From: Candidatus Margulisiibacteriota bacterium
GTDB taxonomy: Bacteria > Margulisbacteria > WOR-1 > O2-12-FULL-45-9 > XYB2-FULL-48-7
DNA: 64,000 nucleotides
Direction of reading: 5' to 3'
Assembly: GCA_041650855.1 (NCBI GenBank)
Contig: JBAZKJ010000002.1
Location: forward strand, 284,280-348,279
The notes under the pieces were generated by a model. It worked only from the letters and a program-made list of their open reading frames with translations, did no database searches and was not told the DNA's origin. Positions 21,873 through 44,901 of this stretch are shown piece by piece; the stretch's first letter is position 1, and every line of letters starts with the position of its first letter. Both the position numbers and the translations under genes were made by a program.

Positions 21873-24617
21873 ATGCGCAAGCCAATATCGACCGTTCTGC
21901 TTCTCCTGGCCCTGGTGACCGGCGCGCTGGCGCAGGACGGCTTTGAAAGTCTCCGCCTGATCAACGCCGCCAACTGGGGAAAACTGTTCAACGAAATGCT
22001 CGGCGCAATCGCCCCCAGCAAAGGGGACTTGCATTTTGCCCCGGTCGACGCCTATCTGCTTTACCGGATCCTGCCGGTCGGTTTGCCGTTAACGGTCAAG
22101 CCGTATCACCTGGCCGGCGCTGATCCCTCTTTTCGGCCCGAGGCCATACCGTTTTTGGCCGATATCACGCTGGCCGAGACCGACATCGAGAAACACCAGA
22201 AAAGATTAGGCCAGAACGCGTCGGCGGCCGTTTATCCCTCGCTCGGCCGTCTTTTCTTGCTGGCGGACGGAGCGCCCTACGCCCAGGTCAGGGTCGCGGC
22301 CGGCCCGGTCGAGGACTTTCTTTTACCCAACGACCCGTTCCTGAACAAACAGACCCCGGCCGGATGGTACAAGCTGTCGGCCCGGACCAATCATTATTTA
22401 AGCGGCGCTTTCTACGAAGAATCGGTCGTCCCGTTCGGCGCCTGGCTCCAGCCGGTCAACGGGACCTGGAGCTATCAGGAAGGCGGAGCGTGGTTCCGGC
22501 TGCCGGGCCGGATCGCGGCCGACCTGGCCGCCGCTCCCGACCGGCGGGTTGGCCGTTATTTCGACGTGCAGACCGATAGCGACGGCCGGATAACGGCGGC
22601 GCGCTGGGGCGACAACCGGTTCGGACGTTACGCGCTCTTTTGGTCGGTCGACGGCCGGGTCGGTTCGCCGTTTAGCGGCTATGCTCCCGGCGGAGCGGTT
22701 TTTGAACAAGTCATGTTGACCAAGGACCTGGTCGAATTGCTGACCGCGCCCGGACCGGATGATTTTGACGCGGCCGTCAGCCGGAACCGCGACCTGGCAA
22801 ACTATCAGGCCAGCGGCTCGGTAAAACCGGCGTTGACGCCGGCGGAGGCAAAAGCGGTCGGCGAATTCACCGAGGACCGGCTGCCGCGGGAAAAAGGGGC
22901 GCGGCGAGCGGCTCTCGGCCGTTACTGGCAGGTGCAGACCGATCAGCTGGCCTTGGCCAGGCGTGCCGGCTGGTATGAGCGGATCAGGCGGGAATGGCCG
23001 TTTTTCCGGCAATTGCGGGAACAGCTGCGGGCCGACTTTACGCGAATGGGCGTTTATGCGCTGGAAAACCGGCAGAACGTGCTGGAGGAGTGGTTAACCG
23101 ACCGGTTGGAATACCGGACCGTCACGCCGCCCGGCGAAGCGAAGTATGTCCAGGAGCTGAACTTTTCGACTTTTTTCCGTCCCGTGGAAAAGCCCTCGGT
23201 CTTCACCGAGCGCGAACGGGCGGTGATGAAAACGGTCATCCGCCGGGCGGCAAGCGGCGAGGCTGGCGGGTTAGCTCTGCGCTCGGTCATGGCGCTTAAC
23301 GAGTACAACTTCGGTCTGATCCTGAACGATATCCTGGGGGACCTCTATAAGAGCCACGGCTGCATCCACGTCTCCCCGCGCAACAGCTATTTCCTTTACG
23401 AGATCCTGCCGCTTGGGGCGGAGATGGTCGTCCACCCGTATACCGACCGGCTCAGCGCAGAAGCGATCGCCGCCGTGCCGCCGCTGGCCAACCTGGTCAA
23501 TTACGCGGAAGACCTGGAAAAGTTAAAAGCCGCCTTTGCCGACCGGAAAGCCGTGCGGATCGACGTTTATCCGAGCTCTGGTTTTTGGCTGGTTAGCCTG
23601 GATGGTAAGCCGTTCGCCCGGTTAGCCGTCAAGGGCGGAGCGCAAAAAGTGATGCAGATGGTGATGAGCCGCGATGCCAAGGGGCGTCCGGTCTTTGAAG
23701 CCGCACTGGCTTACCCAACTTCGCCCGGGCGGTTCCGGATCTTGAAGCGGACGACCAATTACGTTTCCAATCTTTACCGCGATACGACGATCATCCCGAT
23801 GGGCGGGGAGATCGTCAGCCGGGGGGACCACTGGTCCTTTCAGGACAGCACCGGCCAATGGCGCGACCTGCCGGCTAGCGTGGCCGACGACCTGAACAAG
23901 CCGAGCGAAGCGCGGCAATATACTTTTTACGACCCGGCCGTCAACGCCAGCGGCGAGGTCGCCAGCGTCAAGTGGGGGAGCCACCCGTTCGGCAAGTACG
24001 CGCTGATCACGACCAAGGACGGCCGGACCGCCTGGCCGGAGCTGATCCATTCGTCCGGCGACCTGATCATGGAAGAGCGGCAACTGATCAATGATCTGAT
24101 CTATGTCCTGGCGGCGCCGCACGACGCGCTGGACGATTGTCTTGATAACAGCCCCAACTTCGGCCTGTACAAGGATTGTTACGATTTTGTCAGCGGCGTT
24201 AACTCCGGCGAGGTTTTGGGGGACCGGGAACGGGCCGCCTACAAGCTGCATTACGGCCTGCCCAGGACGGCGAGCGAGGAAGCGACTTTGCCGCCGGATA
24301 CGGTGGCTGCTTACCGGTCCAATCGGGGAGGGCTCAAAATGAAGCTGGACCAGCGGAAGATCGACGGCTTGGTCTACGATAATTACATGTACGTAGTGAC
24401 GGTCGAGAAATACGCCCACCATTACGCGACGCTGCGGCGTTACTGGCAGGAGCTGAGCGGTTTAAGATTAGCGATGCTCCGGGACTTCAATGATTTCGTG
24501 GTCAAAGACCCGGTGATCTTTCATTCGTTCATGAGGGAATTAATGCTGGCTCGGACCCGCCTGGAGCGGTTGTCGCAGGAGAACGCCATTAGGCAATTAG
24601 CGAAATTGCTCGAGTAG
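21873..24617 (+). CDS. Large secreted protein with tandem L,D-transpeptidase-like modules (paralog 1)
   Basis: Signal peptide MRKPISTVLLLLALVTGALA. C-module YKSHGCIHVSP matches the LDT SHGC catalytic motif; the N-module has SKGDLHF in place of SHGC. Internal duplication, and paralogous to 41974-44901. Confidence 0.6.
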   Translation: MRKPISTVLLLLALVTGALAQDGFESLRLINAANWGKLFNEMLGAIAPSKGDLHFAPVDAYLLYRILPVGLPLTVKPYHLAGADPSFRPEAIPFLADITLAETDIEKHQKRLGQNASAAVYPSLGRLFLLADGAPYAQVRVAAGPVEDFLLPNDPFLNKQTPAGWYKLSARTNHYLSGAFYEESVVPFGAWLQPVNGTWSYQEGGAWFRLPGRIAADLAAAPDRRVGRYFDVQTDSDGRITAARWGDNRFGRYALFWSVDGRVGSPFSGYAPGGAVFEQVMLTKDLVELLTAPGPDDFDAAVSRNRDLANYQASGSVKPALTPAEAKAVGEFTEDRLPREKGARRAALGRYWQVQTDQLALARRAGWYERIRREWPFFRQLREQLRADFTRMGVYALENRQNVLEEWLTDRLEYRTVTPPGEAKYVQELNFSTFFRPVEKPSVFTERERAVMKTVIRRAASGEAGGLALRSVMALNEYNFGLILNDILGDLYKSHGCIHVSPRNSYFLYEILPLGAEMVVHPYTDRLSAEAIAAVPPLANLVNYAEDLEKLKAAFADRKAVRIDVYPSSGFWLVSLDGKPFARLAVKGGAQKVMQMVMSRDAKGRPVFEAALAYPTSPGRFRILKRTTNYVSNLYRDTTIIPMGGEIVSRGDHWSFQDSTGQWRDLPASVADDLNKPSEARQYTFYDPAVNASGEVASVKWGSHPFGKYALITTKDGRTAWPELIHSSGDLIMEERQLINDLIYVLAAPHDALDDCLDNSPNFGLYKDCYDFVSGVNSGEVLGDRERAAYKLHYGLPRTASEEATLPPDTVAAYRSNRGGLKMKLDQRKIDGLVYDNYMYVVTVEKYAHHYATLRRYWQELSGLRLAMLRDFNDFVVKDPVIFHSFMRELMLARTRLERLSQENAIRQLAKLLE

Positions 24618-24622
24618 CGGTT

Positions 24623-24928
24623 TTACTTGGCCCGGGATTTAGCTAAAAATTCGTTGCCGACGTCGGCCGCCTTCCGCGCTTCAAAATAAAGCTTGGAAAG
24701 CATCTGATGGCGTTTGTCTTCCGTTGTCTTCGGGGAAAGGAACGTCCTGATCGAGCTCGCGTCAACGGTGGTGGAGAACTTGGGGTCAACGCTCTTGATA
24801 ACGGTCGTTATCCCCAACGAAAGCGCCAGCCGGATAACCTCTGAGAAACTGAGATCATAGGTCTCAGCGATCTGCTTCATGTGATCGGCCTGCCAGTCTT
24901 CCAACAATACTTGAAACCTTTTTAACAT
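24623..24928 (-). CDS. Ribbon-helix-helix (CopG-like) small protein
   Basis: KRFQVLLEDWQADHMKQIAETYDLSFSEVIRLALSLG fits a beta-strand/helix/helix RHH fold. 101 aa. Confidence 0.4.
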   Translation of the reverse strand: MLKRFQVLLEDWQADHMKQIAETYDLSFSEVIRLALSLGITTVIKSVDPKFSTTVDASSIRTFLSPKTTEDKRHQMLSKLYFEARKAADVGNEFLAKSRAK

Positions 24929-24978
24929 GGGTGTCCTCCTGTTTGTGTATAATTATAGCACAATAAAGCGGTTTTTGG

Positions 24979-25623
24979 TCAGAGCGGCAGTTCCCACTCA
25001 TTCCAAAAGACGTTGACCGGCTTGCCGAAATCCAGGTGGAAGTAGAATTGCCAGGCGTGGTCATTGGCCAGAGTGGAAAAAATGATCTTCTTTTCGCCCA
25101 GCGTGACGGCGGTATTGTACAGCGCCGCCAGCGTCCGGCCGCCGATCCCGCGGGCGGGCGTTTTGACGTAAAGACCGCTTAATTCGAGCAAATTGGTCGG
25201 TTTGATCAGGAGAAAAGTCAGGTCAAGGAGCCGGCCGGCGTCGGTCCCCAGATAGAGAGGATTATCATTGAGCGAGACGGTCTTTTCGTAGGCATGCAGC
25301 GCAACCCTGAGGGTGGTCGGCCCGTTCCCCTTGAGCGCCAAATTGACATTAGCCTGGTCGAAGATCGAGCCGAGATTGGCGATCAATGTGGCGGTCGTGG
25401 CTGGATCGGCCAGTTCTCCCTCGCGGGAGAGGGCAAAATCGACCTGGCCGATGGTAAAACGCCGCTCGTCGATATGTTCCCGAGCTTGCCCGTAGGAGAT
25501 CGCCTGGGTCTCGGCTGCTTTCAGGGCGCGTTCCTTGATCGGGACCCTGGGCTGTGCCAGCTGGGCTGGCCGGAGATGGAACATTATCTGGACCCGCGGG
25601 TCACTCGCTGATAAGTGGAACAT
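24979..25623 (-). CDS. GNAT-family acetyltransferase-like protein
   Basis: Motif A-like VKTPARGIGGRTLAALYNTAV. 214 aa; start uncertain. Confidence 0.5.
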   Translation of the reverse strand: MFHLSASDPRVQIMFHLRPAQLAQPRVPIKERALKAAETQAISYGQAREHIDERRFTIGQVDFALSREGELADPATTATLIANLGSIFDQANVNLALKGNGPTTLRVALHAYEKTVSLNDNPLYLGTDAGRLLDLTFLLIKPTNLLELSGLYVKTPARGIGGRTLAALYNTAVTLGEKKIIFSTLANDHAWQFYFHLDFGKPVNVFWNEWELPL

Positions 25624-25692
25624 GACCAGAATTTATCGAACAAGAGAGCGGAAAATTTCGCCAATTCGGCGAACCGTGGTATAATCAACCAT

Positions 25693-26901
25693 ATGCCAAA
25701 CAGCAATTTTTTCGGCCTCGGAATCGCCCCTGGTCTCCTGGAGATCCTGCAGCGGCTCAAATTCGTGACGCCGACGCCGATCCAGGCGAAAGCGATCCCG
25801 ACCTGCATTGAAGGGAAAGACCTGATCGGGGTCGCCCAGACCGGCACCGGCAAGACGCTCGCCTTCGGCATCCCGATGATCCAGCGGTTAGCCGCGTTAA
25901 AAGGCAAGGGCTTGGTCCTGGCGCCGACCCGGGAGTTGGCCCTGCAGATCGACGATGCGCTCCGGCCTTTTGTCAGCTCTTCCGGGATCAGGACGGCCGT
26001 CCTGATCGGCGGCGCCTCGATGCACCTGCAGGTGCAAGCTATCCGCCGGCAGGCGCGGATCCTGATCGCTACCCCGGGGCGGCTCAATGACCACCTGGAA
26101 CAGCGGACGGTCAACCTGGCCGACGTCAAGATCTTTGTGCTCGACGAAGCCGACCGGATGCTGGACATGGGTTTTGCCCCGCAGATCGCCCGGATCGCCC
26201 GCCACATCCCCGCCGACCGGCAGACGATGCTTTTTTCGGCGACGATGCCCGGGTCGATCGTCAACCTGGCCCGTTCCTACATGAAACTGCCGGTCCAGGT
26301 GGAGGTCGCGCCTTCCGGCACGGCGGCGGAAAAAGTCACCCAGGAGGTCTTTTTTATCCGCAAAGAAGACAAGCCGAAGCTGCTTGGCACGATGCTGGAA
26401 CAGTACCGCGGCACCGTCCTCATTTTTTCCCGGACCAAACGCGGGGCTTCCCGCATCACCCGCGGCCTGCGCGGGATGAACTATAACGCGGCGGAGATCC
26501 ACTCCGACCGGTCGCTCTCCCAGCGCCGGGAAGCGCTGGACGGTTTTAAGTCCGGTAAATACCGGATCCTGGTGGCGACCGACATTGCCGCCCGGGGGAT
26601 CGACGTGACCGGCATCGAGCTGGTCGTTAACTACGACCTGCCCGACGACGCCGAGAACTATGTCCACCGGATCGGCCGGACGGGGCGGGCGGGGCAGGAG
26701 GGGCATGCCGTGACTTTTGCCACGCCGGAGCAGAGCAGCGATGTCCGCAATATCGAGAAATTGATGAGAACGGCCTTGCCGGTCGCTAAACATCCCGAGC
26801 TTTCGATCGAAGTGATGCGGCCGCAGGCCAAGCCCGATACTTCGCACTGGCGCCAGCGCGGCATGAGCAGCTACGGCGCCCGCCACCGCCGCCGCCGCTA
26901 A
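25693..26901 (+). CDS. DEAD-box ATP-dependent RNA helicase
   Basis: Q-motif, GTGKTLAF (motif I), VLDEADRMLDMGF (DEAD box) and an Arg-rich C-tail. Start taken at MPNSNFF. Confidence 0.88.
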   Translation: MPNSNFFGLGIAPGLLEILQRLKFVTPTPIQAKAIPTCIEGKDLIGVAQTGTGKTLAFGIPMIQRLAALKGKGLVLAPTRELALQIDDALRPFVSSSGIRTAVLIGGASMHLQVQAIRRQARILIATPGRLNDHLEQRTVNLADVKIFVLDEADRMLDMGFAPQIARIARHIPADRQTMLFSATMPGSIVNLARSYMKLPVQVEVAPSGTAAEKVTQEVFFIRKEDKPKLLGTMLEQYRGTVLIFSRTKRGASRITRGLRGMNYNAAEIHSDRSLSQRREALDGFKSGKYRILVATDIAARGIDVTGIELVVNYDLPDDAENYVHRIGRTGRAGQEGHAVTFATPEQSSDVRNIEKLMRTALPVAKHPELSIEVMRPQAKPDTSHWRQRGMSSYGARHRRRR

Positions 26902-27767
26902 TTACCGATTATTTTAGCAGCTAACCGCTGAGCCAGCGGGATCGCGACCAGCTGGTCGGCAAAGCCGGGGCTGGTGGCGATGGTGACGACCCCGGCCTGC
27001 TGCGCGATCAGGGCCAAAAATTCCTCAGCCGCCGTGAAACTCTCCGCGTCGGGCAGCGCGCCCTGGTACTTTATCTTGACGATCGCGTCGAGGTCGATAT
27101 CGAGGGCGAACCGTTCCCGGCCGCTGGCCCGGCTAATGATCTCGCTAAGCGGGACCTCTTTGCTCAGTGGCCTGATTTGTATACGACCAAGAGGAAGCTG
27201 GTTGGAATTGCCGACCATTCCTCCCGGACAGCCGAACGAAAGCCGCCCGTTAGTTAAAAAAGTGTAGGCCCACCAGAATTCCCCCAGAAGCTGTTGCCGT
27301 AGCGCCGGCATGATGAAATTGGCGTTATTCAGTTCCCGCCGGATAAAATTGGCTGCGTCACCCAACGTCAGCATCTTGCCGGGCGGCGGTTGCAGGCTAT
27401 CGTCGGGATGGGCGTCAATGTGCAGTAATATTGCCCCTTCTTTCAGGTGCCCGGTCAAGCGGGCCTCGTGCCAGGCAAAATAAGCCATCAGGTGATTATC
27501 CATGACGTAAACAGCCGGTCCGCCGGCTTTTTCCAGCCGGACGCAATTTTCCAGGCCGGTGAACTGGAGATCGGGCCTGTCGCTGAAGGAATTGCACGGG
27601 TGGCTGCCTGGCGTGATCGCGGCGGGATCGCCGGCGATCAGCGGCGTGTAATAAACGTGCGGTTTCTGCCGCGAAAGTTGCAGCTCGGTGAAATGGGCTG
27701 ACCTGACCAGGCCGTCACGGCCTGCCAAATAATGGCCTCTTTGCGCTAAGATCGGCGGAAGATGCAT
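26898..27767 (-). CDS. Hypothetical protein with HIDAHPDD metal-binding-like motif (possible UPF0489 / arginase-deacetylase-like fold)
   Basis: 289 aa; LLHIDAHPDD motif. No confident family assignment. Confidence 0.4.
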   Translation of the reverse strand: MHLPPILAQRGHYLAGRDGLVRSAHFTELQLSRQKPHVYYTPLIAGDPAAITPGSHPCNSFSDRPDLQFTGLENCVRLEKAGGPAVYVMDNHLMAYFAWHEARLTGHLKEGAILLHIDAHPDDSLQPPPGKMLTLGDAANFIRRELNNANFIMPALRQQLLGEFWWAYTFLTNGRLSFGCPGGMVGNSNQLPLGRIQIRPLSKEVPLSEIISRASGRERFALDIDLDAIVKIKYQGALPDAESFTAAEEFLALIAQQAGVVTIATSPGFADQLVAIPLAQRLAAKIIGN

Positions 27768-27823
27768 GACAGCGATATATCGTTAGCCGACGTCGGTGAT
27801 TTCAGTGTGCTACAATTGGGCCG

Positions 27824-28768
27824 ATGCGGGCAAGATTCGCTTTATTGCTAATGGCGATTGTTTTAGCCGCCCCGGCGGCAGCCAAACAACCGGCGGAGTT
27901 TAACCCGGAGTCGCTGCCGGAGATCGCCGCACAGCAGTTTGACGGGCGGGAATTGAAGATCGTCAAAACGCTGGCGAGAAACGCCCAGTATACCCGCTAT
28001 CTGATCAATTATCTGAGCGGACAGCTGAACATTTCCGGTATCATGAACGTACCGGTGGGCAAGGGGCCGTTCCCGGTCGTTATCACCAACCACGGTCACA
28101 TTCCGCCGCGGCTCTACACCGTCGGCCGCGGCTTGAAGCGCGAGCAGGATTACCTGGCCCGGCGCGGCTTCGTCGTTATCCATCCCGACTACCGCAATCA
28201 CGGTTTATCGGCTAAGGACCCGGACAGCGAAAGTGGCTTGCGCCTTGGCTATGTCGAAGACGTCATTAACGTTGTCCTGGCGGTCAAGCAAAGCGGCTAT
28301 AAATTTTTGAACAAGGAGAAGATCGGGATGATGGGACACTCGCTTGGCGGCGGTATTTGTCTTAACATCATGACGACCAAGCCCGACCTGGCCCAAGCTT
28401 TCGTCCTCTACGCGCCGGTCAGCGCCGATTACATCGATAACTTCAACCGCTGGGGCCGGCGGAACCACGGGGGGCCGGGCGCAAGTCTTTTGGCCAAATA
28501 CGGTTCGCCGGAGCCGACAGCCGAGTTCTGGCGCAACATGTCGGCCATTAATTTCCTGGACAAGGTAACTGCCCCGGTCGCGATCCACCACGGGACCAGG
28601 GATGAGTCGTGTTATATCGCCTGGTCCGACCGGTTGGCGGCCGAGCTGAAAAGAGCCGGCAAGGATGTCGCTTATTATCGTTACGCCGGCGAGCGCCATG
28701 AGTTCGGCCCGCAATGGGGCTTGTTCATGGAACGGACCGCAAGATTCTTCCGCCAACATTTGGGGTAA
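27824..28768 (+). CDS. Secreted alpha/beta-hydrolase (esterase/peptidase-like)
   Basis: Signal peptide, GHSLGG nucleophile elbow, and downstream Asp/His candidates. 314 aa. Confidence 0.7.
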   Translation: MRARFALLLMAIVLAAPAAAKQPAEFNPESLPEIAAQQFDGRELKIVKTLARNAQYTRYLINYLSGQLNISGIMNVPVGKGPFPVVITNHGHIPPRLYTVGRGLKREQDYLARRGFVVIHPDYRNHGLSAKDPDSESGLRLGYVEDVINVVLAVKQSGYKFLNKEKIGMMGHSLGGGICLNIMTTKPDLAQAFVLYAPVSADYIDNFNRWGRRNHGGPGASLLAKYGSPEPTAEFWRNMSAINFLDKVTAPVAIHHGTRDESCYIAWSDRLAAELKRAGKDVAYYRYAGERHEFGPQWGLFMERTARFFRQHLG

Positions 28769-28809
28769 TCTGCTATAATGCCTGTATCAACGGAAAGGAG
28801 CTAAACAAC

Positions 28810-28980: not shown

Positions 28981-28985
28981 CCCGC

Positions 28986-30509
28986 CTATTTATTTAATTT
29001 CTTAGCCGTCCAAACCCAGCGCTCGCCGAGCAGCTTGCCGGCGCTCTCCGGCATGGTGTCGCAAACGGCGGTCGGCGCCTGCAGAGCCATGGCGAAAAAG
29101 AGCGGTTCCGCCGGTTCCGGCGTCAGCGGCACGTCAACATCGTTCTGGATCTGCCAGCGGCAATTGTCCTGCCCCCCAAAGAAATAAGCCATATAAGCCT
29201 GGCGCTCGCTTTTGCTTAACCCCGGATAATAACGGACAAGCTGGCCGACCGAAGTATCGACCGGGATCCACCCGTAATCAGGCAGATAGAACTCCGCCCA
29301 AAAGTGATCGCCGGCCCCGCGCTGGCCGATGGGGAAAGTCTGCAAGCCGCCGGGACAGCGGGCCGGGATGCCGAGCGAACGGCAGAGCGCGGCAAAGTAG
29401 ATGCTCTGGGCGCCGCAATCGCCAAAACGGTGCCGGTGGACATAGATCGATTCCGGGACCTTGAGGACCTCCAGCGCCAGGTGCGGCATAAAACTGTAAT
29501 TGATCTGCTCGACCACGTAGTAGTAAAGTTTTTGCGCGGCCAGGTACGGATTCTTTTCCCCGGCCACGACTTTCCGGGCGGTGTCCCTGATCCCGGCGTC
29601 AAAGATGATGTTCCGGGCGGAACGGGTGTAACGGCGATAAAGCTGGCTGTTCCGATCGTAACTGCCGACCTTGGCCGGATCGATCTTGAACCGCTGGGCA
29701 AAATGACGGAATTCGTATCTTGCCTCTATTTTGAGATCGTTCTTCAGGGTGTCCAGCGGTACCTCCAGATAAGCCAACCCGATATCGCCGCTGGTCAGGA
29801 ACGGACCTTTGACATATTTGGCCGGTTCAATGGCCACGATCTTGATGTTGTCTTGCGCGGCGGTCGCGATCGGCAGGGGGATCCAGATCTTGAACGTCCC
29901 GGCCGCGGGCAATTCCGCCCGTTTGAGCACCGCGCGGCCGCTCGCCAGGTAGGTGGCAGGCATAAAAAATGTTTTGTCGGCCGGACCGGCAGCCTGCTGT
30001 TTAAGCAGCGCCAGTAAAAGTTTGAGCGGGTCTTGCCCTTTGCCCAGGGCCGTTCCCTGCTGACTGGCCCGGAAATCGGGGTAGAGGTGGTAAAGTGTGT
30101 TCAGGAGATCGGCAAAATAATATTTTTTCCCGCCCATGGTCAAATTATCGATTCGGTTATCCTTAATGACCTGATCGATCCGGGCCTGGCTGATCTTGGG
30201 ATAGGACTGCGTGATCAGCCGTCTGACCGCCTCCAGTGAATGCGGGTAAGAAAGCATCACTTTTTGCGCCCGCCAGTAGCCGGCACAACATTCCCGCCCG
30301 AGGCAGCAATTCTTTTCCTGGCGGTAAGCGGTCCGCGCCAGGTTAAAGTATTCCAGCGCTTTCGGGTAATTGCCGTGTCCCTCAAAGCGCATCGCCTGCT
30401 GGCAGTATTTATCGCCCCGAGTGGAGAAAAGACTGGAACAGCTGATGACCAAGAGGACGATCAGGACTAAGCCCGCGGCTGCCAGAAAAAACTTGCGCAT
30501 GTTCCACAC
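28986..30509 (-). CDS. Secreted transglutaminase-like cysteine protease-fold protein
   Basis: Signal peptide; HRHRFGDCGAQSIYFAALCRSLGIPAR transglutaminase core Cys motif. 507 aa. Confidence 0.65.
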   Translation of the reverse strand: MWNMRKFFLAAAGLVLIVLLVISCSSLFSTRGDKYCQQAMRFEGHGNYPKALEYFNLARTAYRQEKNCCLGRECCAGYWRAQKVMLSYPHSLEAVRRLITQSYPKISQARIDQVIKDNRIDNLTMGGKKYYFADLLNTLYHLYPDFRASQQGTALGKGQDPLKLLLALLKQQAAGPADKTFFMPATYLASGRAVLKRAELPAAGTFKIWIPLPIATAAQDNIKIVAIEPAKYVKGPFLTSGDIGLAYLEVPLDTLKNDLKIEARYEFRHFAQRFKIDPAKVGSYDRNSQLYRRYTRSARNIIFDAGIRDTARKVVAGEKNPYLAAQKLYYYVVEQINYSFMPHLALEVLKVPESIYVHRHRFGDCGAQSIYFAALCRSLGIPARCPGGLQTFPIGQRGAGDHFWAEFYLPDYGWIPVDTSVGQLVRYYPGLSKSERQAYMAYFFGGQDNCRWQIQNDVDVPLTPEPAEPLFFAMALQAPTAVCDTMPESAGKLLGERWVWTAKKLNK

Positions 30510-30573
30510 GCTCCTGTTGTGTAACCGGATTACTCAATTATAATGCACGAAGCGGCGGCGCGCAACGCCGGGC

Positions 30574-35317: not shown

Positions 35318-35319
35318 CG

Positions 35320-36345: not shown

Positions 36346-36346
36346 A

Positions 36347-37774
36347 ATGGAAGACCATGTCGTCCGCGACCGCCGGCAGCAATTCTGGCTGATCGCGATC
36401 ATCTCCGCGATCTCTTTTTTGATCACCCTTGATTACAATAGCCTCAACATCTCCCTCCCGTCGATCGCCAATTCTTTTGGCGTAAAAGTCGGCGTGGTTT
36501 CTTGGTTGCCGACCCTTTATCTGCTCACGATCACCGGCACGCTGCTCGGGTTTGGCAAGCTTGGCGACATGAAGGGGTACAAGCTGGTCCTCTGTCTCGG
36601 CCTCGGTCTGTTCGCCCTGGGCGGACTGGCGTGCGCTCTGGCCCCGACCTTCCCGGCGCTTTTAGCCGCCCGGGTTTTCCAGTCATTGGGGCAGGCGATG
36701 TACAGTCCGATCTGCATTGCCATGCTGACGACTTTCCTGCCGACCGACATGAAGGGGAAAGCCCTGGGCCTGTACGCGACTTTTCAGGGGCTCGGGTTGG
36801 CTTCCGGTCCGGCACTCGGTGGGTTGATGAACTCGCTCATCAGCTGGCGCGGCGTTTTTCTTTTTACGGCGCCGCTTGCCTTGCTGATCCTGCTGGCCGC
36901 AGTTAAGCTCCTGCCGTCCAAACAACCGCCGGCCAGGGAAACGAGATTTGATCTGTTGGGCGCGATAGTTCTGCTGCTCGGCATGGCGGCGATCTTGTAC
37001 GCGCTTAACCAGGGGATCCGGGTCGGTTGGACCGATCCGTTGATCCTGGCTTGCCTCCTGACGTTCCTGGCGGCGTTCGGCGCCTTTTTCCTTCGGGAAA
37101 AGAGCTGCGCTTACCCGCTGCTCGATCTGAACCTGTTCCGGAACCTCAATTTTACCTTTGCGGTCCTGGCTGCTTTTATCGCCCTGGGGATGCACATCGG
37201 CAACAGCTTTCTCTTTCCTTTCTATCTGCAAATGATGCGGCATCTCTCCGTCGGTGAGATCGGCCTGCTGGCGATGGTCCCTTCGGTTATGATGATGCTG
37301 CTGGCACCGTTCGCCGGCAACCTGTCGGACCGGTACGGCTCAAGGTATATCTGTTTGGCCGGGATGGGTCTGGCGGCTGCGGCTTTTGCGCTTTATTTTT
37401 GCTTGTCGCCCGATTCGAACATTTATTATATTGCCGGGGCGATGTTCCTGCTTGGCAGCGGGATGGGGCTTTTTATCGCCCCGAACAACAAGCTGATCAT
37501 GGCGCAGGCGCCGGCCGACAAGCAGGGGGTCGCTTCCGGCGTTTACAAGATCGCCTTGAACGCCGGTTCCTCGGTCGGGATCGCTTTCTACATGCTGGTC
37601 CTGGCGCAGGTTGTCCTGTTCGATATCGCCAAAATGAACATAATGCTTAACCAGGTCCGCCAGCACACTGATGTCATGATGGCCGGTTTCCGTGGGGCCT
37701 TTCTGTTCGGCCTGTCGCTGGCGTTGCTTGGTATGCTTCTCTGCTACTTGGCGAAAGATAAAACGCCAGCGTGA
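36347..37774 (+). CDS. MFS transporter (DHA2-like, 14 TMS)
   Basis: MFS motifs (GKLGDMKGYK, drug:H+ antiporter-like organisation). ATG at 36347 immediately after the upstream TAA. Confidence 0.8.
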   Translation: MEDHVVRDRRQQFWLIAIISAISFLITLDYNSLNISLPSIANSFGVKVGVVSWLPTLYLLTITGTLLGFGKLGDMKGYKLVLCLGLGLFALGGLACALAPTFPALLAARVFQSLGQAMYSPICIAMLTTFLPTDMKGKALGLYATFQGLGLASGPALGGLMNSLISWRGVFLFTAPLALLILLAAVKLLPSKQPPARETRFDLLGAIVLLLGMAAILYALNQGIRVGWTDPLILACLLTFLAAFGAFFLREKSCAYPLLDLNLFRNLNFTFAVLAAFIALGMHIGNSFLFPFYLQMMRHLSVGEIGLLAMVPSVMMMLLAPFAGNLSDRYGSRYICLAGMGLAAAAFALYFCLSPDSNIYYIAGAMFLLGSGMGLFIAPNNKLIMAQAPADKQGVASGVYKIALNAGSSVGIAFYMLVLAQVVLFDIAKMNIMLNQVRQHTDVMMAGFRGAFLFGLSLALLGMLLCYLAKDKTPA

Positions 37775-39981
37775 TTAAACGATTATTTAAACTATTGGCG
37801 TTGCTGCTGGTCTTGTCCGCTCTTTTATCGGCCGGCGCCTGGTACGGTTTTAATTCTTACCTGCTTCCCCGGGTGATCGTTCCGGCAGTCTTCAAGGAAC
37901 TGTCCAGAACCAACCAAGACCTGCCGATCGAGATCTACATTCGCGGGCTCGACTACCATCCTTTCCGGGGATTCCTCTTCAAAAAGATCGAGCTTTATGT
38001 CGAGCAGCCAAAAGGGAAAGACCTGGTTTTTCAGGCGGCGGAGGTTGATACCGACCTGGACTGGCTGGCGCTGGTCTGGAAAAAGGTGAGGATAACCCGC
38101 TTCAAGGTTAGTGGAGCGACGCTCAATATCAAGCGGGACAAGGCCGGCGCCTGGAATTTTGCTCCGCTCCTCAAGATCGACCGCCAAAGTACGGCGACGC
38201 AGGAGTGGAGCGTAGCGCTGGAGCGGATCGAATTCAACGACGCCGCGGTCAATTACGCCGACCGGGCGAACAAAAAGAATGAGTTAACGCGTTCGTTCCC
38301 GAAAGTCGACCTGGCGATCGGCTGGGAAGGGAAAGGGCAGTTTGCGGTCGACCTCCGGGGAGAAGCGGCCGACCCCCGGCAGGAGTCATTTTCCGCCCGG
38401 TTCAAGGCCGATGCCGCCCGAAAAAGCGTGAGCGGCGAAGCGGCGGTCAAGACCGTCCGCCTCAACGATTACTGGCAATATTATCTGGATGATCTCTGCC
38501 GGCCGTGGCATCTCAAAGCCCAGAGTGTCGCCGCCACCGTTAAATTCTCCGTTGCCAGCCGGGAAGCGACTTACGCCGGACAGATCAACGTCAAACAAGG
38601 AGCATTGCGCAACGGCGAGTACAGCGGTTCCGGCAATCTGACGTTCGGCTACAAAGCGCGGCTGGAAAAAGGGCGGCTGGTCAATAAAGGGACGGTCTTT
38701 AAACTAACGGCAGATAACCTGGCGATCTTTTCCGGCCGCAACAAACTGATCACCAGGGCGCGGCTCAAGACGCTGATCGACGGGGACCGGTTCGCCATCG
38801 AAAGATTCAGCGGCGAATCGTTCAAGGGGAAATTCGACCTGCATAGCGAAATGACCCAGAAGGGGGACGACCTCGAGCAGCTTCGGTTGGAGGGGACGGT
38901 GCAAGACGCCTATGCCGGGATCAAGATGAAGTTCTATCCGAACTGGCAGGCAACGGCCGGCGTGTTGCTGACCGCCGAGTCGTCCCGGGTGCTGGCCAAT
39001 ATCACTTTTACCGACCTGCGGCAGCTCCGGTTCATTGCCGCGGTCACCGGCGAGGTCAGTTTGCCTGATCTTGCCGACCTCATCGATCTGAAGTTTGTGC
39101 TGGTGCTCCCCGGCCTCTCCCAGGAGGTAACGCAGAAAGACCTGAAGGGGAAGGTTGTCCTGGCCGGTTATCTGAAGGGGCGGTATGGTGAAGGGAAAAG
39201 CCTGGATGGCTGGCTGGACGTGGCGTTCCGCAACTTCAGGATCAAGAAAGCGGAAGAACGTTCTTTTATCCTCAACCTCAAAGCTAATAACGGTCGTTTT
39301 CAGGCGGTCATTCCCGTCATGCCGCTTTACCACGGCTATTTTGGCGGCGGCTTTGTCTTTGATCCCGACCGCTGGGGCGTCGAGCTCCATTTTGAGGATC
39401 TCGACCTGGCGGCGCTCGGTTCGACCGACAAACGGTTCCAGGGGATGGCCGGCAAACTAGCGGCCAACGGGGCTTGTCTGGCCCCGTGGAGCGATCTGTC
39501 CTCGATCAAAGGGGGCGGTTATTTTAAGATGACCGACGCTAATCTCCAGCCGGCGCCGATCTTCAAGATCATCGAAGAGGGGATCGCCAGCGTTAACAAG
39601 GGCTTTACCTTGCCGGACTTCAAGAGTATCGAGGGGAATTTTCAGGTCGCGGACGAGAAACTGACGATCGATAACGCTTATGCCAAAGCGTCTAATATGG
39701 ACCTGAAGATCGAAGGCGATTACGCTTTTTCCGGCGAAACGGACTTTACGCTCGGGGTCAAATTCTCGCGCGGCAGCAACTGGAAGCTCGCCCGGCAGGT
39801 CCTTTTTCCGGTGACGATCGGGTTCGACGTACTGGCCAATTCGATCCAGGTCGACATCAAGGGCAAATGGCCCGATCTCCAGCAGAAGACGCTGATCAAG
39901 ACGCTGCAGTGGATGGACGCGCTCTTTGACCCGAACATGAAGTTCGAGCCGGATAAATACACGCTTAAGCAGATCTGGTGA
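37771..39981 (+). CDS. AsmA-family / DUF748-like outer-membrane biogenesis protein
   Basis: N-terminal TM anchor then a long beta-rich periplasmic region typical of the AsmA/TamB-like family. 736 aa. Confidence 0.45.
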   Translation: MIKRLFKLLALLLVLSALLSAGAWYGFNSYLLPRVIVPAVFKELSRTNQDLPIEIYIRGLDYHPFRGFLFKKIELYVEQPKGKDLVFQAAEVDTDLDWLALVWKKVRITRFKVSGATLNIKRDKAGAWNFAPLLKIDRQSTATQEWSVALERIEFNDAAVNYADRANKKNELTRSFPKVDLAIGWEGKGQFAVDLRGEAADPRQESFSARFKADAARKSVSGEAAVKTVRLNDYWQYYLDDLCRPWHLKAQSVAATVKFSVASREATYAGQINVKQGALRNGEYSGSGNLTFGYKARLEKGRLVNKGTVFKLTADNLAIFSGRNKLITRARLKTLIDGDRFAIERFSGESFKGKFDLHSEMTQKGDDLEQLRLEGTVQDAYAGIKMKFYPNWQATAGVLLTAESSRVLANITFTDLRQLRFIAAVTGEVSLPDLADLIDLKFVLVLPGLSQEVTQKDLKGKVVLAGYLKGRYGEGKSLDGWLDVAFRNFRIKKAEERSFILNLKANNGRFQAVIPVMPLYHGYFGGGFVFDPDRWGVELHFEDLDLAALGSTDKRFQGMAGKLAANGACLAPWSDLSSIKGGGYFKMTDANLQPAPIFKIIEEGIASVNKGFTLPDFKSIEGNFQVADEKLTIDNAYAKASNMDLKIEGDYAFSGETDFTLGVKFSRGSNWKLARQVLFPVTIGFDVLANSIQVDIKGKWPDLQQKTLIKTLQWMDALFDPNMKFEPDKYTLKQIW

Positions 39982-40009
39982 TATAATAACCGGCAGACCC
40001 GCAAAAGGA

Positions 40010-41974
40010 GTGACGATCGTGAAGAAAACGACCTGGGCCATTATTCTGCTCCTCTCTCTGGCCGTGACCGCTTTTGCCGCTGAACCGAAAGACGCCTCGG
40101 ACCAGACCAAAGCGCTCAATGCCGCGCTGCGGCAACAACTTCCTTTTAATAATAATGAAGATTTTGCCGATGCCGCGCGTGGTTTGATCACCGCGGAAAC
40201 CGGCCTGATCGTTCGCGACGATCAGGGGAAGGCGGTCTGGGACCTGCAGCAGTATGCTTTCCTGGACGGCGACCCGGCTTGTCCGGACACCGTCAACCCG
40301 AGCCTTTGGCGCCATGCCCGGACCGACTATATTCACGGCCTCTTCAAGGTCACGGATCACGTTTATCAGGTGCGCGGTTACGATCTGTCCTGCATCAGTT
40401 TTATCGAGGGCAAGACCGGTTATATAGTAGTTGACCCGCTAGTCTGCGCCGAAACTGCGAAAGCGGCCCTGGCGCTGGTCCATAAGCACGTCGGCCAGAA
40501 ACCGGTCGTGGCCGTGATCTACACCCACAGCCATGTTGACCACTGGGCCGGCGTCAAGGGGGTCGTGTCCGAAGCGGACGTTAAAGCGGGAAAGGTCAAG
40601 ATCATCGCTTCGCAAGGTTTTCTGGAGGAAGCGGTCAGCGAGAATGTCATGGCCGGGAACGCGATGTCGCGCCGGGCAGCATACATGTACGGCAACTTGA
40701 TCCCGAAAGGGCCCAGGGGGCAGCTGAACGCCGGCCTTGGCCCGACGGTCTCGCAAGGCACGATCACCATCATCGCGCCGACCGACGTCATCAAGAAGAC
40801 CGGGGAGACGCGGACGATCGACGGGGTCAAGATCGTCTTCCAGTATACGCCGAACACGGAAGCGCCGACCGAGATGAACTTCTATTTCCCGCAGTACAAG
40901 GCGCTCTGCATCGCGGAGAACTGCGTCCACACCCTGCATAATCTTTACACGCTGCGCGGCGCCAAGGTGCGCGACGCCAAGTCGTGGGCTTATTTCCTGA
41001 ACGAAGCGATCGACCTGTTCGGCGGCCAGGCCGACGTCATGTTCGCCAGCCACCACTGGCCGAGCTGGGGGAGCGAAAAGATCACCGGCATGCTGGCCAA
41101 ACAGCGCGACGCTTATAAATATATCCACGACCAGACGCTCCGCCTGGCCAATGAAGGATTGAACATGGTCGAGATCGCCGAGCAGATCAAATTGCCGGAG
41201 ACGCTGGCGCAGGCGTGGTATAACCGCGGTTACTACGGGACGGTCAACCACGACAGCAAAGCGGTCTACCAGCGGTACCTCGGCTGGTTCGACGGCAACC
41301 CGGCGACGCTTGACCCGCTGACACCGGTTGCCGCCGGCAAGAAATACGTCGAGTTCATGGGCGGCGCCGAGGCGGTCATCAGTAAGGCGAAAAAGGAGTT
41401 TGTGAAAGGGGAATACCGCTGGGTTGCCCAGGTCCTGAACCACGTGGTCTTTGCCGATCCGGGGAACAAGGCGGCGCGCGAGCTGGAAGCGGACGCGCTG
41501 GAACAGCTCGGCTACCAGGCCGAGTCCGGCGTTTGGCGCAACTTTTATCTGACCGGGGCGCGCGAGCTGCGCGCCGGGATAGTCAGGATCCCGGCCAAGA
41601 CGAATAGCCCCGACGTCATCGGCGCGATGTCGCTCGACATGATCTTTGACTTCATGGCGATCCGCCTGAACGGCCCGCAGGCGAACGGGAAGACGATCAG
41701 GATCAACTGGGTCCTGACCGACACCGGCGAAAAATATCTGCTGACGGTGGCCGATTCGGTCTTAAACTACTTCCCCGGGAAGCAGTCCGCTAAGGCGGAC
41801 GTCACGGTCACGCTCAAACGCTCGACGCTGAACGAAGTGCTGTCGGGGGTGGCGTCGTTCAAGAACAAGATCGTTGCCGGCCAGATCAAGATCAAAGGGA
41901 ACATCTTTAAGCTTATCGAGCTGATGGAGCTGCAGGACAAGTTCGACCCGAACTTTAGGATAGTCGACCGGTAA
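40010..41974 (+). CDS. Alkyl/aryl-sulfatase-like metallo-beta-lactamase-fold hydrolase (SdsA1/BDS1 family)
   Basis: Signal peptide, THSHVDHWAG MBL metal motif, and C-terminal SCP2-like dimerisation region. 654 aa. Confidence 0.7.
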   Translation: MTIVKKTTWAIILLLSLAVTAFAAEPKDASDQTKALNAALRQQLPFNNNEDFADAARGLITAETGLIVRDDQGKAVWDLQQYAFLDGDPACPDTVNPSLWRHARTDYIHGLFKVTDHVYQVRGYDLSCISFIEGKTGYIVVDPLVCAETAKAALALVHKHVGQKPVVAVIYTHSHVDHWAGVKGVVSEADVKAGKVKIIASQGFLEEAVSENVMAGNAMSRRAAYMYGNLIPKGPRGQLNAGLGPTVSQGTITIIAPTDVIKKTGETRTIDGVKIVFQYTPNTEAPTEMNFYFPQYKALCIAENCVHTLHNLYTLRGAKVRDAKSWAYFLNEAIDLFGGQADVMFASHHWPSWGSEKITGMLAKQRDAYKYIHDQTLRLANEGLNMVEIAEQIKLPETLAQAWYNRGYYGTVNHDSKAVYQRYLGWFDGNPATLDPLTPVAAGKKYVEFMGGAEAVISKAKKEFVKGEYRWVAQVLNHVVFADPGNKAARELEADALEQLGYQAESGVWRNFYLTGARELRAGIVRIPAKTNSPDVIGAMSLDMIFDFMAIRLNGPQANGKTIRINWVLTDTGEKYLLTVADSVLNYFPGKQSAKADVTVTLKRSTLNEVLSGVASFKNKIVAGQIKIKGNIFKLIELMELQDKFDPNFRIVDR

Positions 41975-44901
41975 TGGCGAGATATTTCTGGACGGCGCTG
42001 TTCTTGCTCTGTTGCCTGGCGCCGCTCCAGGCCGCGACTTACGAAAGCCAGGCGCTGCTCAACGGGACCAACCTGGCGGATTTCATCGGCGACCATCTCG
42101 GTTTTCTCTACGATAGCCACGGTTGTTTGCATTTTACCCCTTCCGATATCTACCTTTTGGTCAGAACGGTCCCCAAAGGGGCGAAGCTGACGATCAAAAG
42201 TTACAATCAGAGAACGCTGCCGGACGGCTACGCGGCGGCGCCGGTCTTCAGAAAACTGGTCACGACCCGGGGCGACGTCAATAAATATGCCGATATGTTC
42301 AAGAAAGGGAACGCCCGGCTGGTCGTTTATCCCGGGCTCGGCCAACTATTTGTCCTGGTCGGCGACCAGCCGCTGGTCAAGATGAAGACGTCGCCCGGTC
42401 CAGCCCAAGACTACCGGCTGGTTTTCTCTGCCGACCCGGACGGGCGGATCGGTTGGGATAGCTCGCTTTCCACGCCGACCGACCCCGGCGACTATAAGAT
42501 CCTCGGGACGACCGCTCATTACCTCAGTAACGCTTATCGCGATATCACGATCGTGCCGTTCGGCGGCTGGCTGGTCAAGCAGAAAGGGAACTGGGTTTTC
42601 CAGAACGACGACCGCAAGTGGTACCAGGCGCCCGGTTTCATTGCTAACGATCTGAACCAGCCGTATGGCCAGCAGACGGAGAACTATCTCGATATTAATC
42701 TGGATAAACAGGGGAAGATAACCGGCGCCCGCTGGGCGGGGAACGATTTCGGCAAGTACGCGCTCCTCTGGACGGTGGACGGCCGGAACCGCTATCCGGA
42801 GCTGGGTTACTGCGAAGGGCAGCTCCTTTATGAACAATCGGTCTTGATCAAGGACCTCGCCCAGCTTTTAACCGTGCCGGGCCCCGATTCGTTGGAGGCG
42901 TGCATTGCCGGGAATGAGAACTTCAAGCTCTACCGCGCCGTTCATGATTTTCTGGTATCCAGCGGCGAGGTCGCGGCGGCGAGCCTTGATCCGGTTTCCT
43001 GCAGTTATGTGAAGCTCTTTAATGGTTTTCCCTTGAACGCGGCCGATAAAGTGAATATCGACGACCGGGTGGAAAAAGCGTTCCGTGATCAACGGGCGGG
43101 GAAATATCCGCTGCTGCCCGATCAAAAGCAGCGCCAGCTCGGCTTGTATAACTTTGTCCGCGATTACGATAATGTTTTTGACAAGAACGCCGGCTGGTAC
43201 GTCATGGTCCGCGACCACTGGGACGTCTTGAGCGATTTACGGGCCAAGCTGCGCCGCGATTATAACGCCTTTGGCCTGTACTCTCCGGATAACCGGGTCA
43301 TCGCCTTGGAGCGGTTCTTGAACGACCGGCTGGAGTTCCGCCAGGTCGTTATCCCCAAGCGGGGCAAGCCGCGGTTGACCTTTGCCGATTTTGCCAGCAC
43401 GGCGGAAGAACAGTCGATCTTCAACGCCCGGGAGAAAGAGGCGCTCCGCGGCCTGATCCGCGCCGCCGCCTCGGGGGAAACGGCGGTGCCGGAGATCTCT
43501 TCAGTTCAGGCGCTCAACGACTACAACTTCGGCGTCCTGCTTAACGCGATGCTGGGCAACTTATATAAAAGCCACGGCTGCATGCACGTCTCGCCGCTTA
43601 ACGTTTATATATTGAACAAAGTCCTGCCGGTCGGCGCCCGGATCACGATCAAGCCGTACGCGGAGAAAGCGCCGGCCGGGTACGATAAGCTCCCGTTCCT
43701 AGCGGAGATGGTGAACTTCAACGACGATCTTACCGGCCTGGCGGCGCAGTTAGCCGATCCGGGCTCCGTCAGGGCGATAGTCTATCCGGGATCCAACTTA
43801 TGGATAATTTCTTTAAAAGATAAACCTTTTGCCCGGATGATGATCGAAGCCGGTTTCCAGCAGAAGGTCAATATCATGCAGGGGCGGGACAAGAACGGTT
43901 ATCCGCTGTTCGCCAAGGACATCGCTTACCCGACGCCCCCCGGCAGTTATTCCGTCTTGCGGAAGGTCGATAATTACGTTTCCAACCTTTATTACGACAC
44001 GACCGTCGTGCCGCAGGGGGCGCAGCTGAAGAAGACCGGCGGCAACTGGTCGTACCGGAAAACGGACGGCAGCTGGGGAAACGTGCCGGACGCGATCAAC
44101 GACGACTTGAACGGGTCGCGCCGGGAACGGACCTACGAATATTACGACCTGGGACGGGACGACAACGACAAGCTGGTCCGCGCGAAGTGGGGGAGCAACA
44201 CTTTCGGCCGCTTCCCGATCCTGCTGACCAAAGACGGCCGGACGCCGGCTCCCGAGCTGGTCCACACGACCGGCGACCTGATGATGGAACAGCGGCGGCT
44301 GGTCGGCGACCTGATCAGGGTGATGGCCTCGACTTTTGAGAGCTTTAACGCCGCGACCGCGGCCAGCCGGAACTTCGATCTCTACACGATCTGCTACCAG
44401 TTCACGCAGGACCCGCAGCGCGCCGACCTGCTTGAGCCGATCGAAAGCGGCAGCTACAAAGCTTATCTGGACCTGCCGCTCAATGCCGACGAGCAAGCGG
44501 CGCTGCCGCCCGATGTCATTGCCTGTTTTAAGCTATACAAGGGGAAAGAACCCCTGACCCAGGCGGAAGCGGACCTGCTCGTCAGGGAAGGATTGGCCCG
44601 CTGGCAGGGGGGAACTTTGAAGGTCGATGACGCCAAGGCCTACGGGGTCCTGTACGACCTCTATCAATACGTCGTTTCGATCAGGAAGAATGCCAATATA
44701 TACTCGACCCTGCAGGACAACTGGAACGCGCTGGCCGATATCCGCCAGGCGATGCTCCGGGACCTGGGCCGGCTCCGGATCAAGGACCCGGCCGTTTTTG
44801 CCGAACTGATGCGGGAGCTGATCACCGAACGGGCGCAAATGGAGCGGTTGACCCAAAAGGACGCATACCGGATACTCGACGAACAACTCGAAGACAATTG
44901 A
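41974..44901 (+). CDS. Large secreted protein with tandem L,D-transpeptidase-like modules (paralog 2)
   Basis: Signal peptide; both modules retain SHGC (YDSHGCLHFTP and YKSHGCMHVSP). Same internal-duplication architecture as 21873-24617. Confidence 0.6.
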   Translation: MARYFWTALFLLCCLAPLQAATYESQALLNGTNLADFIGDHLGFLYDSHGCLHFTPSDIYLLVRTVPKGAKLTIKSYNQRTLPDGYAAAPVFRKLVTTRGDVNKYADMFKKGNARLVVYPGLGQLFVLVGDQPLVKMKTSPGPAQDYRLVFSADPDGRIGWDSSLSTPTDPGDYKILGTTAHYLSNAYRDITIVPFGGWLVKQKGNWVFQNDDRKWYQAPGFIANDLNQPYGQQTENYLDINLDKQGKITGARWAGNDFGKYALLWTVDGRNRYPELGYCEGQLLYEQSVLIKDLAQLLTVPGPDSLEACIAGNENFKLYRAVHDFLVSSGEVAAASLDPVSCSYVKLFNGFPLNAADKVNIDDRVEKAFRDQRAGKYPLLPDQKQRQLGLYNFVRDYDNVFDKNAGWYVMVRDHWDVLSDLRAKLRRDYNAFGLYSPDNRVIALERFLNDRLEFRQVVIPKRGKPRLTFADFASTAEEQSIFNAREKEALRGLIRAAASGETAVPEISSVQALNDYNFGVLLNAMLGNLYKSHGCMHVSPLNVYILNKVLPVGARITIKPYAEKAPAGYDKLPFLAEMVNFNDDLTGLAAQLADPGSVRAIVYPGSNLWIISLKDKPFARMMIEAGFQQKVNIMQGRDKNGYPLFAKDIAYPTPPGSYSVLRKVDNYVSNLYYDTTVVPQGAQLKKTGGNWSYRKTDGSWGNVPDAINDDLNGSRRERTYEYYDLGRDDNDKLVRAKWGSNTFGRFPILLTKDGRTPAPELVHTTGDLMMEQRRLVGDLIRVMASTFESFNAATAASRNFDLYTICYQFTQDPQRADLLEPIESGSYKAYLDLPLNADEQAALPPDVIACFKLYKGKEPLTQAEADLLVREGLARWQGGTLKVDDAKAYGVLYDLYQYVVSIRKNANIYSTLQDNWNALADIRQAMLRDLGRLRIKDPAVFAELMRELITERAQMERLTQKDAYRILDEQLEDN

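Follow-up and report, generated by a model that had tools for sequence, protein, structure and literature searches.

Paired, probably circularly permuted YkuD-like modules in a family of predicted secreted L,D-transpeptidase-like proteins from Margulisiibacteriota

L,D-transpeptidases (LDTs) influence the strength of the cell wall, the susceptibility to carbapenems and the anchoring of the outer membrane. Margulisbacteria are diderm Terrabacteria in which homologues of OmpM, an SLH-domain tether, have been reported (bioRxiv 10.1101/2021.05.31.446380). Two LDT families, YkuD and VanW, are recognised in a 2025 review that makes no mention of permutation (PMC12729407). According to this review, the active site is a triad of Cys, His and a small residue, in which the catalytic His is that of phi-H-G-(S/T), located upstream of (S/T)xGC, the two elements forming one contiguous motif, phi-G-phi-H-G-(S/T)-X10-17-(S/T)-X-G-C-phi-R-(M/L); attachment of Lpp and of beta-barrel proteins of the outer membrane to peptidoglycan is a further known activity of LDTs (PMC12729407). 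In this study, a stretch of 64,000 nucleotides from a Candidatus Margulisiibacteriota genome (contig JBAZKJ010000002.1; hereafter the window, in whose positions all coordinates are given unless a locus is named) was analysed, which carries two paralogous genes, P1 and P2, encoding secreted LDT-like proteins of two modules each. The best overall explanation, to which we assign a probability of roughly 0.6, is that these proteins are secreted, permuted LDT-like enzymes combining a Y-type and an H-type module, with a possible role in tethering the outer membrane to peptidoglycan or in untethering it.

Both genes lie on the plus strand and encode proteins of about 100 kDa with signal peptides, as an earlier interpretation made from the letters of the DNA (the sequence-only reading) had proposed. 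P2 (41974-44901) encodes 975 amino acids, comprising a signal peptide, a Y-type module and an H-type module. Its ATG shares one nucleotide with the stop codon of the alkyl-sulfatase gene that precedes it (TAATG), and its signal peptide (41974-42033, plus strand, residues 1-20, MARYFWTALFLLCCLAPLQA/AT, ending APLQA/AT) was read from the translation, with a predicted local distance difference test score (pLDDT) below 50 at residues 15-20. P2 is 100% identical to a protein annotated as 'hypothetical' in a Candidatus Margulisiibacteriota metagenome-assembled genome. The open reading frame (ORF) of P1 covers 21819-24617, that is, 932 amino acids from the first ATG; AAGGAAG precedes a Met codon at 21873, from which a protein of 914 amino acids (21873-24617) results, with a typical signal peptide (MRKPISTVLLLLALVTGALA/QD), a decayed Y-type module and an intact H-type module. 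The '932-aa ORF' and the start at 21873, both quoted in the sequence-only reading, are thus different starts of the same ORF, 21873 being Met19. P1 and P2 are full-length paralogs (38% identity, 663 bits), and each contains the internal duplication claimed earlier, the halves aligning to each other at 29% identity in P2 (E=4e-66) and 28% in P1 (E=4e-39). The motifs quoted in that reading are likewise all present, namely YDSHGCLHFTP (residues 46-56) and YKSHGCMHVSP (531-541) in P2, APSKGDLHF (47-55) and YKSHGCIHVSP (492-502) in P1, and the FG motifs ARWAGNDFGKY and KWGSNTFGRF of P2 and ARWGDNRFGRY and KWGSHPFGKY of P1.

The Pfam YkuD profile (PF03734) matches whole P1 and whole P2 with 23.9 bits against a gathering cut-off of 23.4, over positions 118-146 of its 146. 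The profile comparison that had been suggested for each half separately fell short, as all four halves score below the cut-off (P1-N and P2-N, no match; P1-C, 18.7 bits; P2-C, 14.4 bits). In P2 the YkuD-matching segment begins about 25 residues past the signal peptide, and therefore the first ~117 canonical YkuD positions cannot precede SHGC. The contiguous LDT motif is not found in these proteins: (S/T)HGC is present, the His strand follows it only ~230 residues later (C536 and H764 in P2), and the Arg position is occupied by His. Among the 64 relatives recovered by an exhaustive profile search (see below) are two short proteins with the SHGCIH signature, P0112 and P0113, in which the catalytic His stands ahead of SHGC, as in canonical YkuD. 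P0112 matches YkuD positions 38-146 above the cut-off, and 41 of the 47 members of the P0113 family, from Bacteroidota, match PF03734 (best E=2.6e-9), the PDB sequence matches of this family being weak and to LdtMt2 only. The signature of the P0113 family runs in the order TPTxxG, NDFGH, IHTTP, SHGCIHVKP.

When the Margulisiibacteriota modules were aligned to the P0113 family by hhalign in native order, module positions 20-105 matched family positions 183-250 (96.6%, E=5e-10), and module positions 110-258 matched family positions 21-169 (95.5%, E=1e-8). After un-permutation in silico, one collinear match of 185 columns was obtained (98.8%, E=7e-17), in which PELVHTTGD, containing H764, pairs with DFIHTTP, and SHGCMHVSP pairs with SHGCIHVKP. 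The swapped order was also returned by BLASTP. These swapped-order matches, merging into one collinear match on un-permutation, indicate a circular permutation. Each module of ~470 amino acids thus appears to combine a single YkuD domain in circularly permuted order with a helical domain of ~200 amino acids. The permuted domain would open with the SHGC loop and the strands that end the canonical fold, followed by the canonically first strands with a beta insertion of ~60 residues and then by the catalytic-His strand. The WGSxxFG(K/R)(Y/F) motif, which the sequence-only reading had assigned to a beta-rich module separate from the LDT-like one, aligns to the invariant FG of 'NDFGH' in the Bacteroidota family, on the strand before the catalytic-His strand, and so this region belongs to the permuted YkuD domain; in the hhalign and BLASTP alignments, the two supposed modules are the two halves of one domain. 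The WGSxxFG strand may correspond to the strand that carries 'NP(L/M)G' in LDTs of the E. coli type. In addition, the C-terminal strand of the P0113 family ('HFYPGxxKIxxY', alignment A2) aligns to the module strand after the SHGC segment (AIVYPGSNLWII). Together with the start of the P0112 match at YkuD profile position 38, this suggests that the P0113 family, too, may be opened elsewhere on the ring, at a third site; a permutation arising by duplication followed by truncation would be expected to leave such forms.

Other searches returned little. Un-permuting the P2 modules artificially did not raise their Pfam YkuD score (15-18 bits), and the match of the C-module widened to profile positions 39-146. 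When PDB sequences were searched with the family profile, the sole match was to the SHGC tail of 4xxt (28 residues), and an NCBIfam scan of P1 and P2 gave no significant match. An AlphaFold2 model of P2, built on a 47-sequence alignment (pLDDT 88.5; predicted template modelling score (pTM) 0.70), shows each module as a beta-rich core with a helical domain of ~200 residues after it, and the core of the P2 C-module modelled in isolation reaches a pLDDT of 84.6 and a pTM of 0.82. In a Foldseek search of the full P2 model against the PDB, no match had E<0.2, a result that is uninformative for a permuted domain within a 975-residue query. Partial, low-Z and strongly enriched fold matches are what a sequence-order aligner should give for a permuted, insertion-bearing domain. 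Membership of the modules in the YkuD fold is likely, and the kinship to YkuD-type LDTs put forward in the sequence-only reading is borne out by profile similarity and by a probable similarity of fold.

The two modules differ in a systematic way. In P2, the N-module (42034-43431, plus strand) consists of a permuted YkuD-like core (residues ~25-281) and a helical domain (~282-470), and the C-module (43432-44898, plus strand) of a core (~512-766) and a helical domain (~767-975). In a non-redundant residue census comprising 78 C-modules and 75 N-modules (fewer at some positions, as given), the position of the catalytic His is occupied by His in 78 of 78 C-modules, termed H-type, and by Tyr (74) or Phe (1) in the 75 N-modules, termed Y-type. 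The next residue is Ser or Thr in 78/78 H-type modules and mostly Ala (50/75) in Y-type ones. SHGC is complete in 68/68 H-type modules, and its Cys is retained in 63 of 70 Y-type modules; in the 47-sequence alignment this Cys is invariant in the C-module and at least 90% conserved in the N-module, confirming the expectation that the SHGC cysteines would be conserved in orthologs. The canonical Arg two residues after the Cys had been described as consistently replaced by His, which holds for the H-type modules (69/69) and for most but not all of the Y-type ones (64/70). A further position, in the sequence xHY(L/I)S (H182 of P2; 42517-42519, plus strand), carries a class-specific His in 59 of 73 Y-type modules versus 5 of 72 H-type modules, where Asn or Asp is usual (DNYVS). 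This His and the catalytic His form a reciprocal switch between the module types, and in the Bacteroidota family both positions of this switch are occupied by His. In the Y-type site, the H182-type His may serve as a base that has changed position.

A Cys at the catalytic position is present in both modules of P2, as C51 within S48-H49-G50-C51 (42115-42126, at least 90% conserved) and C536 within S533-H534-G535-C536 (43570-43581), and in the C-module of P1, as C497 within S494-H495-G496-C497 (23352-23363), all on the plus strand. The N-module of P1 reads S49-K50-G51-D52 (22017-22028, plus strand), with Asp at the Cys position, and has therefore lost its nucleophile, as the sequence-only reading had recognised. 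The predicted catalytic His, followed by a small residue, occurs in the C-modules, as H764-T765 of P2 (PELVHTTGD; His codon 44263-44265, plus strand) and H726-S727 of P1 (PELIHSSGD; His codon 24048-24050, plus strand), and is missing from the N-modules, in which Tyr takes its place (Y279 of P2, 42808-42810, plus strand, invariant in the alignment; Y270 of P1 in SGYAPGG, 22680-22682, plus strand). H764 aligns to the His of IHTT in the P0113 family. The His within SHGC, part of what the sequence-only reading called the catalytic signature, is not the catalytic His of LDTs, whose catalytic His is that of phi-H-G-(S/T) (PMC12729407), corresponding here to H764 and H726. The complete sets C536/H764/T765 of P2 and C497/H726/S727 of P1 are the predicted active sites, C536 being the predicted nucleophile of P2. 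Since Tyr279 stands at the catalytic-His position, even the P2 N-module lacks a canonical Cys-His pair. Decay of the N-module is not peculiar to this genome but recurs in several lineages: besides SKGD in P1, the motifs SRDC, TRGG, SRGE, SRGD, SNGD, DYGC, DDGN, GNGS, SAGD, SQGC and SHGS are found elsewhere, and decay occurs at no fewer than six places on a crude neighbour-joining tree of the C-modules, among which no decayed one was found.

The modules also occur on separate genes. Single-module proteins with signal peptides exist (P0083-P0086, P0088, P0090 and P0094), and the genes for the two types are adjacent at several loci. A Y-type gene (477 amino acids) is followed by an H-type gene (506 amino acids) with a 4-nucleotide overlap at L004; the reverse order is found at L005 and L006, where an H-type gene (648 amino acids) overlaps a Y-type gene (480 amino acids) by 8 nucleotides. 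At L007 (1817-7386) a conserved neighbour gene, described below, is followed by a single H-type gene (544 amino acids) and a fused Y+H gene, and at L009 (1880-5835) by single H-type and Y-type genes. At L035 (435-4852) a single Y-type gene with intact SHGC overlaps a fused gene whose N-module is dead (DDGN). Such adjacent, overlapping genes suggest that the Y-type and H-type modules form a fixed, obligate pair, of which P1 and P2 would be the fused, 'Rosetta stone' versions, and we consider it very probable that these proteins are permuted YkuD-like pseudo-heterodimers. The single-module proteins, the confident folding of the isolated core, and the invariance of C536 and H764 where the N-module nucleophile is gone together support that Cys536 pairs with His764 within one module.

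By analogy with LDTs, the target of the H-type thiolate would be the L,D peptide bond in a stem peptide of peptidoglycan; an acyl-enzyme would form on the H-type Cys, and the acyl group would be passed to an amine or to water. On balance we predict the C-module to be an active Cys/His acyl-transferase or hydrolase acting on such stem peptides. The Y-type module would be required as its partner, whether by binding the substrate or a client or by serving as a second site of non-canonical type; it would be constrained in P2, which has kept SHGC, and turned into a decayed pseudo-enzyme (SKGD) in P1.

A candidate partner is encoded next to the family genes. Homologs of one protein family of ~230 amino acids, all secreted, adjoin a family gene in about 23 of 38 distinct loci (e.g. 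L001:9152-9829 and L020:3598-4290, both minus strand), usually divergent from it and immediately upstream, and any other real neighbour gene is common to at most 7 loci; an apparent neighbour cluster of 14 loci was rejected as an antisense ORF inside the family gene. At the split-pair loci L004 and L005, upstream genes of ~226-240 amino acids look analogous, with a homology to this family that is marginal (E=0.011) or undetected by an independent hidden Markov model. In the window, the neighbour (225 amino acids; 21156-21830, minus strand) is divergent from P1, with 42 bp between the two start codons, and comprises a signal peptide, a proline-rich spacer and a glycine-rich amphipathic beta region of ~150 residues ending in SQPIRL. 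Across the family the layout is a signal peptide, a lysine-rich motif immediately past the cleavage site in most members (K[VI][IV][KR]K.[VI].K[VI][IV].P), a proline-rich spacer and about eight amphipathic glycine-rich strands ending in SQPIKL. A PDB search with the neighbour found nothing, and Pfam gave only weak OmpW matches (best E=0.0023, 3 of 22 members). The protein is a putative small outer-membrane beta-barrel.

The lysine-rich tail of the neighbour varies with the state of the N-module next to it. The tail is present in 13 of 13 neighbours beside an intact N-module SHGC (L001, L010, L014, L020, L022, L024, L026-L030, L032 and L038) and absent from 4 of 4 beside decayed N-modules (the window copy, L019, L033 and L034), the latter representing three lineages on the crude tree. 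This paired absence could mean that a site and its ligand were lost together. Since Lpp and beta-barrel proteins are among the molecules that LDTs link to peptidoglycan, and Margulisbacteria are diderms reported to have OmpM homologues, the barrel-like neighbour is a plausible client, that is, a candidate acceptor for covalent tethering or for its reversal; as a claim of fact this role is tentative, and we consider it rather unlikely. A synthetic peptide, QKVIKKTVKKVITP, is envisaged as the acceptor in a stem-peptide transfer. In its most specific form, the proposal is that the Y+H enzyme and the Lys-tailed barrel form a covalent tether between outer membrane and peptidoglycan, with the H-site activating the stem peptide and the Y-site (SHGC, Tyr and the relocated His) recognising or processing the tail; it is doubtful in this form, but if true it would explain the joint loss of the tail and the Y-site motif in three lineages, including that of P1 and its neighbour.

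Several explanations were weighed against a Y+H transferase. The proteins could have an LDT-like fold and be hydrolases, either L,D-carboxypeptidases or endopeptidases like Csd6 and Pgp2, or amidases like DpaA that detach proteins from peptidoglycan. Sequence does not discriminate transfer to water from transfer to an amine, and the Lys-tailed neighbour fits attachment and detachment equally; we regard hydrolysis as a serious but unlikely alternative. The view of the sequence-only reading, in which LDT domains in tandem have the canonical order, both are competent in P2 and only the N-module is dead in P1, is less probable still. It draws on the retention of SHGC in both modules of P2 and of most orthologs, a part of the claim that stands, and a class-specific His such as H182 could in principle replace the missing base; but the part concerning a full catalytic signature in the P2 N-module fails at Tyr279, none of the 75 N-type modules having a His there, the domain order is permuted, and the repeated decay of N-modules, never matched in C-modules, shows that the two sites are not equivalent. 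Cross-module assembly, in which the beta part of the N-module and the SHGC loop of the C-module would build a canonical-order core with the helical domain as an insertion, and the first SHGC and the last beta part a second, swapped domain, is very improbable, given that genuine secreted proteins of a single module are found, the C-module core is modelled with confidence in isolation, and split pairs occur in both gene orders. Under such an assembly, moreover, the clades with a decayed N-module would have H764 without a nucleophile, C536 facing Tyr and no complete site, yet C536 and H764 are invariant. Large helical domains and N-module decay in several lineages would suit a non-enzymatic peptidoglycan-binding scaffold on a degenerate LDT fold, an explanation that is likewise very improbable, because the C-module Cys, His and following Ser/Thr are invariant in all non-redundant members, a signature of selection on catalysis.

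Some observations also weigh against the secreted Y+H enzyme that we favour. Each half by itself scores under the Pfam YkuD cut-off, and the geometry of Cys536 and His764 is deduced from the way in which residues are conserved and from the occurrence of single-module proteins. The N-module could still be a catalytic site itself, as SHGC is strongly kept in most Y-type modules together with the class-specific His (H182 of P2), and the replacement of the canonical Arg after the Cys by His implies that substrate binding may differ from that of LDTs. With regard to the neighbour, the OmpW matches are weak, the window copy has no lysine-rich tail, P2 has no such neighbour in the window, and the co-variation of tail and N-module rests on four cases and a crude tree.

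The family is small and taxonomically confined. An exhaustive profile search of 1.84 billion proteins found 64 cluster representatives, all named homologs belonging to Margulisiibacteriota, Saganbacteria or WOR-1, and a pattern scan of 185,579 species genomes found 34 loci, of which all with a named taxon fall in the same groups except one. This exception, L040 (JAQVRT010000065.1, 3.9 kb), is a family member on a contig binned as 'Candidatus ainarchaeum'; the contig was probably mis-binned, and the homolog is then not archaeal. Several genomes carry two copies. The view that the architecture is uncharacterised holds, as curated families cover P1 and P2 only by a 29-residue Pfam match, and homologs are named 'hypothetical', occasionally 'L,D-transpeptidase', in their sources.

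Around P2, an AsmA/DUF748/YhdP-like protein (736 amino acids) and an alkyl-sulfatase-like protein of metallo-beta-lactamase fold (654 amino acids) are encoded upstream (37771-41974, plus strand), the alkyl-sulfatase gene not being conserved beside homologs. Straight after P2 (44910-52369, plus strand) follow two FtsX/MacB_PCD genes, an ABC ATPase gene, two further FtsX/MacB_PCD genes, a LolA_like gene and one for a Wzi/porin-like protein; the duplicated LolCE-like pairs are unusual. The co-occurrence with an FtsX/LolA-like operon that was to be checked is therefore real at P2, but this linkage was rejected for the family, since neither the homolog loci that were inspected closely nor the recurrent neighbour clusters contain these genes. 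Genes for an extracytoplasmic function sigma factor (52414-52917) and a TolC-like outer-membrane efflux protein (53709-54941) come after this run. Near P1 lie genes for a homolog of TMEM175-type potassium channels (259 amino acids; 20319-21098, minus strand) and a transglutaminase-core protein (507 amino acids; 28986-30509, minus strand). The window also contains a tRNA-Asp (GTC) gene (16170-16260, minus strand) and a cluster of tRNA-Arg (GCG), tRNA-Ser (GGA) and tRNA-Ser (CGA) genes (63404-63670, plus strand).

A permuted YkuD fold would show how far a fold can be rearranged while its catalytic residues are kept, and the Y/H pair would be a naturally occurring example of an enzyme coupled to a pseudo-enzyme in which one of the two sites has decayed repeatedly. 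Neither permuted LDTs nor YkuD pseudo-enzymes turned up in full-text literature searches. The system is, moreover, a candidate for envelope tethering in a diderm Terrabacteria phylum whose only reported main tether homologue, OmpM, is non-covalent, and it warns that annotation pipelines under-call LDT-like enzymes.

Compared with canonical YkuD LDTs, P1 and P2 have a permuted order, with SHGC first and the His ~230 residues later, a beta insertion of ~60 residues, His rather than Arg or Asn two residues after the Cys, and a helical domain of ~200 amino acids per core; they fuse two modules, one without the catalytic His, are 3-5 times larger, and match 29 of the 146 Pfam positions. The uncharacterised Bacteroidota P0113 family (Mucilaginibacter and Pedobacter; 220-265 amino acids) shares the TPTxxG, NDFGH, IHTTP and SHGCIHVKP signature and the beta insertion, but has its catalytic His before SHGC, is single-domain, lacks a helical domain and an obvious signal peptide, and belongs to another phylum. 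The anchoring LDTs, E. coli LdtA/B/C with Lpp and Coxiella Ldt2 with the beta-barrel proteins BbpA/B, combine an LDT-fold enzyme with an outer-membrane protein bearing an amine in its periplasmic tail (PMC12729407). The likeness here is a candidate client whose gene adjoins that of the enzyme and which shows co-variation with it, whereas the anchoring LDTs have a canonical single YkuD domain and use as acceptor either the C-terminal Lys of Lpp or an N-terminal Gly-Gly. The L,D-carboxypeptidases Csd6 and Pgp2 and the Lpp-peptidoglycan amidase DpaA/LdtF are, unlike P1 and P2, single-domain proteins of canonical order. VanW-type LDTs (LdtCd4/5 of C. difficile) employ a triad of Cys, His and a small residue on peptidoglycan (PMC12729407), with an unrelated fold, and a Pfam scan of P1 and P2 gave no VanW match. 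The fold and the chemistry are already known, and what is new in this family is the topology, the fixed pairing of Y-type and H-type modules, and the gene linkage.

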